A stretch of 25,209 nt of DNA from contig JAFGAR010000032.1 of assembly GCA_016933575.1 (NCBI GenBank), positions 1-25,209 on the forward strand, written 5' to 3'. A program made the translations under genes and the position numbers. Source of the stretch: Candidatus Thorarchaeota archaeon. GTDB taxonomy: Archaea > Asgardarchaeota > Thorarchaeia > Thorarchaeales > Thorarchaeaceae. The notes under the pieces were generated by a model. That model saw nothing but the letters and a program-made list of their open reading frames with translations, was not told where the DNA came from and made no database searches. This document shows, piece after piece, positions 1,557 through 3,305 of the stretch. Every line of letters begins with the position of its first letter. Positions within the stretch are counted from its first letter, which is position 1.

Positions 1557-1979
1557 TCAATGTGCAATACTTCTTGCTATCACAGTAAGTACAAGCCCTA
1601 GAGCCAAAGCAGTGTGCAATATTAACCAGGTGAGTATCAAAAGGCCTGCCCATCCAATTGATGCAACCACCCACCAAATCATTAGGATTAGACTAATCAA
1701 CCCAAAACCTGCAGAGATAGCAATGATGAATTTTCCAGTTCGGATATGAGATGTCGTAAGCAAATATCCCCCAATGATGACAGCAAAACCACCCAACCAA
1801 GCAATTAGCCATAGAATGACCAGTATAATATCAATCAGTAGGTAGAGAGGCGCAAGTGGAGCTATTGAGTGGACCAGAATATAAATCAAAACAATAGTCG
1901 CAGTACCATGTGTATAGTTTGCACCAATGAGCAAAAGCCCACCAATGATACAGAGTGCAAAGGGTGTTTGATTACGCAT
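1557..1979 (-). CDS. Hypothetical integral membrane protein (about 4 TM helices)
   Basis: 140 aa, almost entirely hydrophobic, ATG start with GAGG upstream. Confidence 0.75.
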   Translation of the reverse strand: MRNQTPFALCIIGGLLLIGANYTHGTATIVLIYILVHSIAPLAPLYLLIDIILVILWLIAWLGGFAVIIGGYLLTTSHIRTGKFIIAISAGFGLISLILMIWWVVASIGWAGLLILTWLILHTALALGLVLTVIARSIAH

Positions 1980-2065
1980 TTTGCTTCCTCAGGCTTAATG
2001 TGATGTTGAGGTGTTGTACTTTATACACTTTTCGCGAGCAGGAGAAATACATAGCTGCCCAATGA

Positions 2066-2083
2066 TAAGGTAAGGTTTATTTA
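2066..2083 (+). promoter_or_regulatory. Putative archaeal BRE/TATA promoter of the his operon
   Basis: TTTATTTA at 2076-2083 preceded by purine-rich taaggtaagg, implying a start site near 2100-2108. Confidence 0.5.
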
Positions 2084-2096
2084 GCATTAGAATCGG

Positions 2097-2318
2097 AAAC
2101 GAGTTGGAGTTGAATGACGTGAGGAATTGCGTTCATCAAAGGTGGTTGTGTTCACTAAGAGACCTACCACTAATATAGAAAATACAGATGAATCTCACTC
2201 AGAACACTCTCTCAATACTACTTGTTTCAGAATCTCTTGTCTAGTCAGTAGTAGGCTAGCAGTTGGTTCTGATTTTGTAAATCAATTCACTGTCATCAAA
2301 AACGAGTTGGTGTTAGGT
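2097..2318 (+). promoter_or_regulatory. Long structured 5' leader of the his operon (candidate cis-regulatory RNA)
   Basis: Direct repeat aaacgagttgg(a/t)gtt at 2097-2111 and 2300-2314, several complementary segments (see findings), and uORF ATG-ACG-TGA at 2114-2122. Confidence 0.5.
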
Positions 2319-3305
2319 ATGTCTAAAATAAAACTAGCTATTCCAAATGGACACTTGAGTAAAACAACGCTTGAAACCTTCGCACGTGCAGGATACAAGA
2401 TATCTGGTCAGGAGCGAACTTATACACCTATCATCAATGACCACCATATTGAAGTCCGTGTGTTAAGGCCGCAAGAGATTCCCACCTTTGTCGCAGATGG
2501 GCTTCAGGACTTAGGTGTCACAGGGAAGGATTGGCTCAGGGAAACCAATAGTGATGTTGAAATTCTACTCGATTTGGAATATTCCAAAGTTCGAATCGTC
2601 ATTGCAATACCTGAAACTATGAAAGGGATTGAATCTTTGTCAGATTTGATCTGCTCGTTTTCTGGTGAAGATAGACCACTTAGAATATTCACGGAATATC
2701 TAAGGCTTGCATCAAAAGCAATTCGTCATAATCCCATGTATACGGAACTTTATGGGTCTAAAGAACCAATGATAGTAACGCCATGGTGGAAGAAGGGTAC
2801 TAATTCTAAGGTTGGAGTATACCTTTCTTTTGGTGCTACTGAGGCTAAGCCACCGATATTAGCAGATGCTATTATCGAAGTCGCTGATACAGGTGCCTCG
2901 CTAAGACAGAATGGGTTGAGAAAAATTGAAACATTGATGGAATCGACAGCAGTGCTCATTGCCAATAAACAATCAATAATCGATCCAGCTAAACATGAGA
3001 AAATTTGTGATGTTATGACTCTCTTACGAGGTGTAGTTGAAGCACGTCGCAAACTTCACATCTTTGCCAATGTAAAACGTGATAATCTTGATGTATTATT
3101 AATGCAACTACCAGCCCTAAGAAAACCGACTGTGAGTCCATTATCTGATAGTGATTGGGTAGCTATCAATACAGTCATCGATCGAACTGTATTCTTAGAG
3201 ATTATTCCTAAACTTAGGAGATTGGCACAAGGACTTGTTGTATATGAACCACGGCAGGTTTTGTCACTAGATTATATGCAATTAGGAGAGAATAACAATG
3301 AGTGA
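2319..3305 (+). CDS. hisG: ATP phosphoribosyltransferase (long form)
   Basis: KLAIPNGHL, LRPQEIP, DLGVTGKDW, GATEAKP, DTGASLRQNGL, C-terminal regulatory domain (PTVSPLS). ATG at 2319 (MSKIKLAIP) after ggtgttaggt. Confidence 0.95.
   Translation: MSKIKLAIPNGHLSKTTLETFARAGYKISGQERTYTPIINDHHIEVRVLRPQEIPTFVADGLQDLGVTGKDWLRETNSDVEILLDLEYSKVRIVIAIPETMKGIESLSDLICSFSGEDRPLRIFTEYLRLASKAIRHNPMYTELYGSKEPMIVTPWWKKGTNSKVGVYLSFGATEAKPPILADAIIEVADTGASLRQNGLRKIETLMESTAVLIANKQSIIDPAKHEKICDVMTLLRGVVEARRKLHIFANVKRDNLDVLLMQLPALRKPTVSPLSDSDWVAINTVIDRTVFLEIIPKLRRLAQGLVVYEPRQVLSLDYMQLGENNNE

Follow-up and report, generated by a model that had tools for sequence, protein, structure and literature searches.

The 25,209-nt stretch of DNA analyzed here (Candidatus Thorarchaeota archaeon, GCA_016933575.1, contig JAFGAR010000032.1, positions 1 to 25,209 of the forward strand; hereafter the window) carries a histidine biosynthesis operon whose first gene, hisG, is preceded by a long leader. 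Comparison with related sequences showed that this leader is a real, widespread, single-locus control element of histidine genes, since its core is conserved, occurs once per genome, and lies before hisG or hisS. The leader is probably translated and senses histidine through the ribosome. The exact path, in which two successive +1 frameshifts at hungry His codons would carry ribosomes to hisG, has in our view about an even chance of being right. An earlier note on this DNA, made from the sequence alone, had proposed a new cis-regulatory RNA of the his operon that senses a ligand. A conserved cis-regulatory leader with real RNA helices and no Rfam match was indeed found, but sensing by the ribosome rather than by a ligand-binding RNA is favored because the dominant conserved signals are the placement of stops, an open frame to hisG, and the avoidance of His codons.

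The closest hisG relatives were in Bathyarchaeota/Bathyarchaeia metagenome-assembled genomes (MAGs; 50 to 57% identity) and in one uncultured archaeon (70%), and the upstream regions of all these relatives have in common a near-invariant block of ∼40 nt that corresponds to 2119 to 2155 of the window. The collection comprised at least 152 instances of this core, with 125 distinct leaders in 51 clusters at 80% identity, and drew on at least 120 metagenome stretches. A degenerate pattern of the core gave a single match per genome in the window's genome, in 13 others of its family, and in 5 + 10 Bathyarchaeia genomes. It had no match in 315 genomes of other families in a sample of the phylum, and reversed-pattern controls gave none in any genome scanned. 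The core lies 143 to 208 nt from hisG in nearly all instances with enough downstream DNA, with two exceptions. In L083 the distance is 305 nt and a duplicated hisG 5′ end follows the leader, and in L059, a metagenome contig, the leader (1226-1430) precedes hisS (1427-2683; TIGR00442, 377 bits), a histidine-tRNA ligase gene, at whose start the long open frame ends as UGA-AUG. A search against Rfam 15 gave no gathering-score match in the window, and the best hits on 1950-2400 (E up to 10), such as Histone3 at 14 bits and Evf-2, were chance matches. The genes neighboring the leader in relatives (PAC2, SatD, unknowns) did not suggest a regulator.

Two side observations concern the collection. L071 holds two inverted leader copies and looks like an assembly palindrome. 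Also, hisG and the leader were absent from all 24 to 27 other genomes of the window's genus, and several other genera of the family have them. The contig may be mis-binned (the host MAG, archaeal and 3.47 Mb, is 85% complete with 6.9% contamination), or this species alone may retain the his operon.

In the window, the translation signals and reading frames of the leader are as follows.

2106-2109, + strand: Shine-Dalgarno (SD)-like GGAG, 9 nt upstream of GTG 2119, which also forms one side (5′) of helix P0 (below).
2119-2178, + strand: short zero-frame open reading frame (ORF) with a GTG start, reading VRNCVHQRW..., with His CAT 2134-2136 as codon 6 and the stop TAG at 2176-2178.
2125-2136, + strand: repeat unit 1, AATTGCGTTCAT, the proposed first shift site, with P-site GTT 2131-2133, A-site CAT 2134-2136, and SD-like GAGG at 2121-2124.
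2144-2155, + strand: repeat unit 2, GGTTGTGTTCAC, 19 nt after unit 1, the proposed second shift site, with GTT 2150-2152 and CAC 2153-2155.
2135-2158, + strand: segment of the +1 frame, reading IKGGCVH and then a stop, with the second His CAC at 2153-2155 and TAA at 2156-2158.
2154-2318, + strand: the +2 frame ("frame F"), with no stop between the second site and the start of hisG; here it is in phase with hisG (ORF 2127-3305).

The zero frame showed the marks of a translated leader ORF throughout the collection. The triplet at 2119-21 was AUG, GUG, or UUG in 125/125 distinct leaders and CUG in none, and in the members of the window's family inspected by eye a GGAG, GGUGA, or GAGG stands 7 to 10 nt before it (L044 has a weak match only). 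The ORF is 15 to 23 codons long in all 51 clusters, and its sixth codon is the first CAY. This codon, invariant in all 125 distinct leaders, is usually the only in-frame His, with a second one at codon 11 in a few lineages. A His-rich leader peptide was not found in any frame. The earlier statement that the leader has neither a T-box nor a His-rich peptide holds, but a leader peptide as such is predicted from the GTG 2119 ORF. Separately, the window has a mini-ORF, AUG ACG UGA (2114-2122), after GGAG, whose stop overlaps GUG 2119 (GUGA); it is specific to this sequence and shows no conservation among the relatives.

Further analysis of the core showed that it consists of two copies of one unit (an SD-like G-run, AUUGY, NUU, and CAY) exactly 19 nt (18+1) apart. 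For this invariance of core and spacing, the 21 leaders retrieved through hisG and the genome hits that tolerated mismatches are the only evidence that does not depend on the search. Unit 1 varies only in a Y/N/Y-type manner, at the equivalents of 2130, 2131, and 2136. Unit 2 varies at the same positions, though a fixed-frame reading would put it in a different phase. Only with frame 0 for unit 1 and frame +1 for unit 2 do the changes become synonymous (Cys and His) or stay within Val/Ile/Leu, and this is exactly the pattern that a +1 shift at the first CAY would produce. The +1 frame itself is open between the two sites in 125/125 leaders, and in 47/50 clusters a UAA, UAG, or UGA, not always at the same position, closes it 0 to 2 codons past the second His codon. 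With a background of 0.085 stops per codon, such a placement would occur by chance with a frequency of 0.23 per cluster (binomial p ∼ 2e-26).

The third frame is the one that stays open. Across the 51 clusters it contains 22 stops, compared to 226 and 213 in the other two frames, and in most clusters its end falls in the interval from −41 to +10 nt relative to the gene start, irrespective of the phase of hisG (at +10 in 78/125). In four clusters of the window's family it is fused in phase to hisG; in the window it is closed upstream by TGA 2115-2117. Gene callers predict this frame, and ∼130 clusters of hypothetical proteins of 53 to 91 amino acids are 51 to 98% identical to its L016 version. 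It could be taken for a real small protein of 60 to 80 amino acids, annotated as hypothetical, with the core as its N-terminal coding region and with its end at the hisG start, as in overlapping-gene operons. We consider this very unlikely, because almost no purifying selection on amino acids was seen. The frame evolves almost neutrally, with differences at the three codon positions of 373:370:433, compared to 313:174:1258 for hisG in the same pairs, and a synonymous fraction of 0.31 versus 0.25 to 0.27, and only 1 difference creates a stop in it, versus 81 and 70 in the other frames. In addition, its product has no Pfam match, variation within the core affects first and second codon positions but not third ones, several lineages have the frame broken or startless upstream of the second site, and the in-phase fusions to hisG do not fit a separate protein. 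The 60- to 70-amino-acid "hypothetical proteins" annotated before hisG are thus probably not proteins, which should serve as a warning to annotators of hisG upstream regions.

Two further properties of this frame point to the ribosome. First, because the frame would have to be translated when His-tRNA is scarce, avoidance of His codons in it was predicted beforehand, and the prediction was borne out. His codons account for 12/2406 codons (0.5%) in the +2 frame, compared to 56/2397 and 55/2386 (2.3%) in the other two, a 4.6-fold depletion (Fisher p = 9e-10) that was seen in each of the two clades and is not shared by other NAY codons. Second, stops upstream of the second site, or the lack of a start codon, occur in the +2 frame of at least five lineages (L042, L059, L154, L146, and L110/L017), in all of which the downstream frame is intact. 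Since such defects are tolerated without downstream decay, ribosomes appear to enter this frame at the second site. Tryptophan is likewise seldom encoded in the long frame (Trp codons, 0.1%, versus 0.8 to 0.9% in the other frames), perhaps because selection disfavors codons that a single mutation turns into a stop.

These properties suggest the following mechanism. Ribosomes would start at GTG 2119, with GGAG 9 nt upstream, and read unit 1 as Asn-Cys-Val-His. When charged tRNA-His is plentiful, CAT 2134-36 would be decoded and translation would stop at TAG 2176. When it is scarce, the ribosome would wait with CAY in the A site, and the P-site tRNA on NUU could re-pair in the +1 direction on UUC, a shift of the prfB type. 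Because the units are 19 nt (18+1) apart, the shifted ribosome would then read unit 2 in the same phase and meet CAC 2153-55. Decoding of this codon would lead to an immediate stop at TAA 2156, whereas a second +1 shift would put the ribosome in the third frame, stop-free and almost His-free to the hisG start and, in the window, in phase into HisG. Only a double failure, at both His codons, would therefore deliver a ribosome to hisG (or to hisS in L059). Its arrival would turn the operon on, perhaps by termination-reinitiation, by unfolding of the 2227-2272 hairpin and the SD region, or by protection from termination at a U-run.

Several points weigh against this path. First, most of the metagenome examples were retrieved with a pattern that fixes the core and its 19-nt spacing. 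Second, the re-pairing from NUU to UUC keeps only 2/3 pairs unless N = C, and the SD-like elements stand 5 to 6 nt before the shift codon, compared to 3 nt in prfB. Third, two successive shifts multiply two efficiencies, so that the yield could be low. Fourth, 49/51 clusters have a possible canonical start for the long frame (UUG at the position of 2127 or an upstream GUG), and the long frame could therefore be entered by ordinary initiation. The first His codon is usually CAC (7/9) where the two following bases would make a stop in the long frame, which hints that this frame is read there. Fifth, the window's own long frame holds two His codons (2196-98 and 2205-07). Finally, masking of the hisG SD is not supported by covariation in Bathyarchaeia.

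The RNA helices considered in the leader are as follows.

2106-2110 with 2206-2210, + strand: helix P0, with −11.1 kcal/mol for cognate versus −9.2 kcal/mol for non-cognate duplexes (p ∼ 0.006).
2120-2154, + strand: hairpin H1, formed by repeats 1 and 2 around an apical loop that contains the first CAY, in the RNAalifold consensus.
2141-2146 with 2166-2171, + strand: hairpin P2, whose base is 5 nt downstream of the first His codon; compensatory changes replace A-U by G-C pairs.
2187-2198, + strand: 3′ strand of P1, pairing with 2131-37 and 2119-23, in the minimum-energy fold.
2227-2272, + strand: second-domain hairpin, outer stem 2227-34/2265-72 and inner stem 2241-46/2254-59, followed by a T4 run at 2273-2276.

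Every string that the earlier note quoted was found where it had placed it. Its folds fared unevenly when the hisG upstream regions were aligned; the alignment showed a conserved leader and covariation for some of the helices. On the window alone, a claim of structure is not above chance, since the energy of the whole-leader fold is ordinary (z = −1.1; 27/200 shuffles fold equally well) and Rfam gave no match. The fold that would leave the hisG SD free, pairing 2110-29 with 2283-99, found no support in the window's family (p = 0.29), nor did the hairpin of CAUCAA with UUGGUG that would hide the SD (p = 0.24 in the window's family and 0.95 in Bathyarchaeia). For the SD region, a far-upstream partner was supported in the window's family only (p = 0.01). 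The alternative fold was partly upheld. All three of its helices (2119-23/2194-98, 2131-37/2187-93, and 2141-46/2166-71) are in the minimum-energy fold, and the relatives support the last of them, P2, but not P1 in the window's family (cognate test, p = 0.64). The P1 equivalent in Bathyarchaeia, repeat 1 with a downstream CUCC-type block, is supported (p ∼ 0.0005); a simple search for the best complement of repeat 1 scored little higher than shuffled sequences did (9.7 versus 9.3 of 12). The six core pairs of P2 (alignment columns 43-48/66-71) are paired in nearly all cells, and the nine-pair helix, as counted, in 73%. Compensatory changes in it were seen by eye in the L140, L082, L047, and L024 folds, two were counted in the aligned subset, and the cognate versus non-cognate duplex test was marginal (p ∼ 0.06). 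The second-domain hairpin is supported. Its sequence is wholly different among members of the window's family and its pairing is kept (cognate −17.0 versus non-cognate −10.95 kcal/mol, p ∼ 0.0005). The inner stem, as proposed earlier, is in the minimum-energy fold, but the closing stem is 2227-34/2265-72 rather than one involving 2199-2205. For the proposed pseudoknot, loop AGUAGUA (2247-53) is the exact complement of 2216-22 in the window, but the relatives do not support it; L045, the closest, has one mismatch, and no complementary loop was seen by eye in the others inspected.

These helices bear on a reading close to the earlier idea, in which the long frame would be an ordinary upstream ORF (uORF, from UUG 2127 or an upstream GUG) coupled to hisG, and the 5′ core would be a riboswitch-like RNA that binds a ligand, tRNA, or protein, toggles between H1 and P1+P2, and so controls initiation of the uORF. 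The near-invariant core, the canonical long-frame starts, and the position of each unit's CAY, which would occupy a loop or junction, all speak for it. H1 is the sole helix recovered by RNAalifold from a MAFFT alignment and is pair-compatible in 384/384 cells of 32 sequences, where 7 pairs vary one-sidedly and 0 are compensatory. P1+P2 are paired in 68% of cells, compared to 31 to 47% for slid controls, and have 6 pairs with compensatory changes. H1 and P2 are mutually exclusive through a common strand, and P0, which covaries, pairs the SD-like GGAG with a downstream CUCC-type stretch. The lack of an Rfam match is a point against such an RNA, and so is the poor fit of tRNA-His as its ligand; the loop of a family member's tRNA-His (UUGUGG + C or A) gives 3 to 4 pairs to UUCAY, and inspection of the conserved core by eye revealed no UGGG stretch as a partner for the CCCA end. 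In addition, the 18+1 spacing, the universal start at 2119, the +1 stop after the second CAY, the avoidance of His codons, and the lineages with long-frame stops or no start upstream of the second site are left unexplained. This reading is for these reasons unlikely, although the core may have some role in binding a ligand or factor. A metabolite riboswitch in general would hold its core in covarying helices and act with its sensor untranslated; the leader has a conserved core and some supported helices, and its reading-frame signals indicate that the sensor region is translated.

A ribosome could also sense histidine without recoding, by stalling at the His codon 2134-36 and refolding the downstream RNA so as to alter termination at a U-run, access to the long frame, or access to the hisG start. 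This logic is known from bacterial hisL, and the leader offers a short ORF with an SD and an invariant His codon, the alternative pairings H1 and P2, and a hairpin with a U-run in the window. Runs of T4 to T6 lie 55 to 77 nt upstream of hisG in many clusters, and a run of at least T4 is found somewhere in the leader in 41/50. However, a single His codon makes a weak sensor, and a simple scan found no terminator-like site (a sigma-70/terminator scan, not meaningful for archaea). Such an attenuator would also leave unexplained why the second unit is in the +1 phase, why a stop follows it, and why the third frame is open and His-free to the gene start. We regard it as quite unlikely, and the two-shift path as the better account of these frame signals.

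Other readings were considered and rejected. A T-box-like model fails because the pairing of tRNA-His with UUCAY is too short. A C/D-box small RNA was dropped because D boxes are missing and AUGAUGA is confined to one clade. A −1 frameshift at the first site has no slippery heptamer, would meet UAA (at the 2136-38 position) in two clusters, and leaves the second unit and the +1 stop unexplained. Hopping between the identical units would land in the closed +1 frame. Reinitiation after the short-ORF stop does not account for the long frame being already stop-free upstream of that stop (∼30 stops expected by estimate versus 0). As to the tRNA itself, ARAGORN found only 17 tRNAs in the window's own MAG and no tRNA-His in the genome, and a spacing-pattern search there gave chance hits only. 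A tRNA-His of a family member (L195:1498-1592, − strand, genome G091), found via RF00005, carries G-1 in its gene, ends in C73-CCA, and is interrupted past position 37 by an intron of 21 nt.

The proposed device resembles several known systems in part. A slow A-site codon favors +1 shifts, and bacterial prfB uses CUU_U with an upstream SD (PMC5009743). Like prfB, the leader has a short zero-frame ORF, a P-site codon ending in UU, and an upstream SD-like element; its A-site codon, tied to the product of the pathway, may be slow, and +1 would be the productive frame. Its start and short ORF are present in 125/125 leaders, the zero frame is closed and the new frame open, and NUU-CAY occurs at both sites before hisG or hisS, where the candidate slip would keep two of three pairs. 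Unlike in prfB, the slow codon would be a sense His codon rather than a stop, two cassettes stand in series, the new frame would lead to the next gene instead of encoding the product, the SD-like spacing is wider, and the host is an archaeon. In the ermC leader, ketolide-induced frameshifting unfolds the mRNA and lets ermC initiate (PMC5009743). Similarly, shifted ribosomes are proposed here to translate on into the spacer, unfold the mRNA, and permit initiation of the main gene, and the end positions of the long frame would bring them to the region of its start. The trigger in ermC is a drug on the ribosome, whereas here it would be scarcity of His-tRNA, and the long frame of the leader is kept open and His-free to the start codon.

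The logic of enterobacterial hisL (RF00514), in which translation of a leader ORF reports charged tRNA-His and controls the his operon, is also similar. However, hisL has seven consecutive His codons and a terminator/antiterminator, whereas the leader has one His per frame, no Rfam match, and no terminator-like site, and its output is apparently via a change of frame. The T-boxes of his and hisS genes in Firmicutes and Actinobacteria follow the same regulon logic, and a codon-like CAY is displayed in conserved RNA in both, but the leader has no Stem I, T-box sequence, or RF00230 match, no complement of the tRNA 3′ end was seen by eye, and its frame signals have no T-box counterpart. Finally, termination-reinitiation at overlapping genes is known in archaea (PMC6728339), and as in those cases the upstream frame stops within a few nucleotides of the downstream start (UGA-AUG, AUGA-type, +1/+5/+10). 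Unlike in archaeal overlapping genes, the upstream frame of the leader lacks the conservation of a protein gene, and recoding seems to be the only way into it.

One further leader may belong to this comparison. L003 (1370-1500), from another family, has a 90-nt leader after a TATA box with a single AUG-AGA-GGU-CGU-CGA-GUU-CAC cassette; its +1 frame stops at a UGA that overlaps the hisG AUG, and its +2 frame is open too. It could be a one-step version of the same device, although with the +2 frame also open the support that it lends is weak.

To our knowledge, no RNA- or translation-level control of amino-acid biosynthesis operons has been described in archaea, and a literature search found none for archaeal his genes. 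A 2016 review of frameshifting knew of no natural use of hungry-codon shifting to produce a trans-frame product (PMC5009743), and the archaeal recoding given as established in two reports is limited to stop-codon readthrough and one −1 frameshift (PMC8211752, PMC8037382). If the two-shift path is true, the leader would be a natural amino-acid sensor built from recoding, and neither a +1 programmed frameshift nor a leader that responds to an amino acid would have been shown in archaea before it. A large group of archaea from soil and sediment, all uncultured, would then gauge histidine by reading-frame maintenance, in a two-step check. It would also provide a search rule for sensors of other amino acids, namely a start codon followed by NUU-codon cassettes with a 3n+1 spacing and by a frame that lacks both stops and the sensed codon as far as the next gene.

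The locus around the leader has the following features.

2070-2083, + strand: B recognition element (BRE)-like purine-rich stretch and TATA box TTTATTTA (2076-2083), with TTTA invariant in the 21 hisG-retrieved relatives.
2309-2321, + strand: hisG SD GGTG (2309-2312) and the ATG start at 2319, with the beginnings of the HisG and HisG_C domains downstream of this ATG.
2319-3305, + strand: hisG, followed consecutively on the same strand by hisD, hisC, hisB, hisH, hisA, hisF, and hisI.

Between hisG and a small, divergently oriented membrane gene, which ends at 1979, lies an intergenic region of 339 nt. No RNA run was listed as containing the leader-hisG region (1900-3300), and two metatranscriptomes from the source study contained next to none of its words. 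In the relatives, a TATA-like TTTA(T/A) box stands at a constant 43 nt upstream of the core. Because the TATA box at 2076-2083 is conserved, transcription is predicted to start at ∼2104-2108, i.e., 25 to 30 nt past it, the usual archaeal spacing, which makes the leader length of about 215 nt given earlier plausible. The tandem repeat, which lies just past the promoter, could also be viewed as a DNA operator bound by a transcription factor. It comprises two direct repeats with internal partial dyads at ∼+15 to +50 relative to the predicted start, is present once per genome, and has clade-specific palindromes nearby. However, the repeat is always on the strand of the gene, its G-U-type variation is compatible with RNA pairing on the + strand only, strong frame-specific signals lie outside it, and no conserved regulator gene adjoins it. 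An operator is therefore extremely unlikely, and the signals are better accounted for by a translated leader.

Two minor observations concern the flanks of the leader. First, a 20-nt direct repeat (2092-2111 and 2295-2314; 85% identity) brackets the leader and coincides with its two translation-initiation regions. The copy at 2092-2111 reads ...ACGAGUUGGAGUU and includes GGAG, and the copy at 2295-2314 reads ...ACGAGUUGGUGUU and includes the hisG SD. Its appearance is unlike an insertion scar, and a weaker resemblance was seen by eye in L046. Second, the relatives have palindromes between the TATA box and the predicted start (the equivalents of 2084-2105), with sequences that differ between clades, for example GGAAGACA...UGUCUUCC and GAACC...GGUUC, some with G-U-type imperfections. 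These would be untranscribed if the predicted start is correct and could then be operator sites, or the start could lie further upstream.

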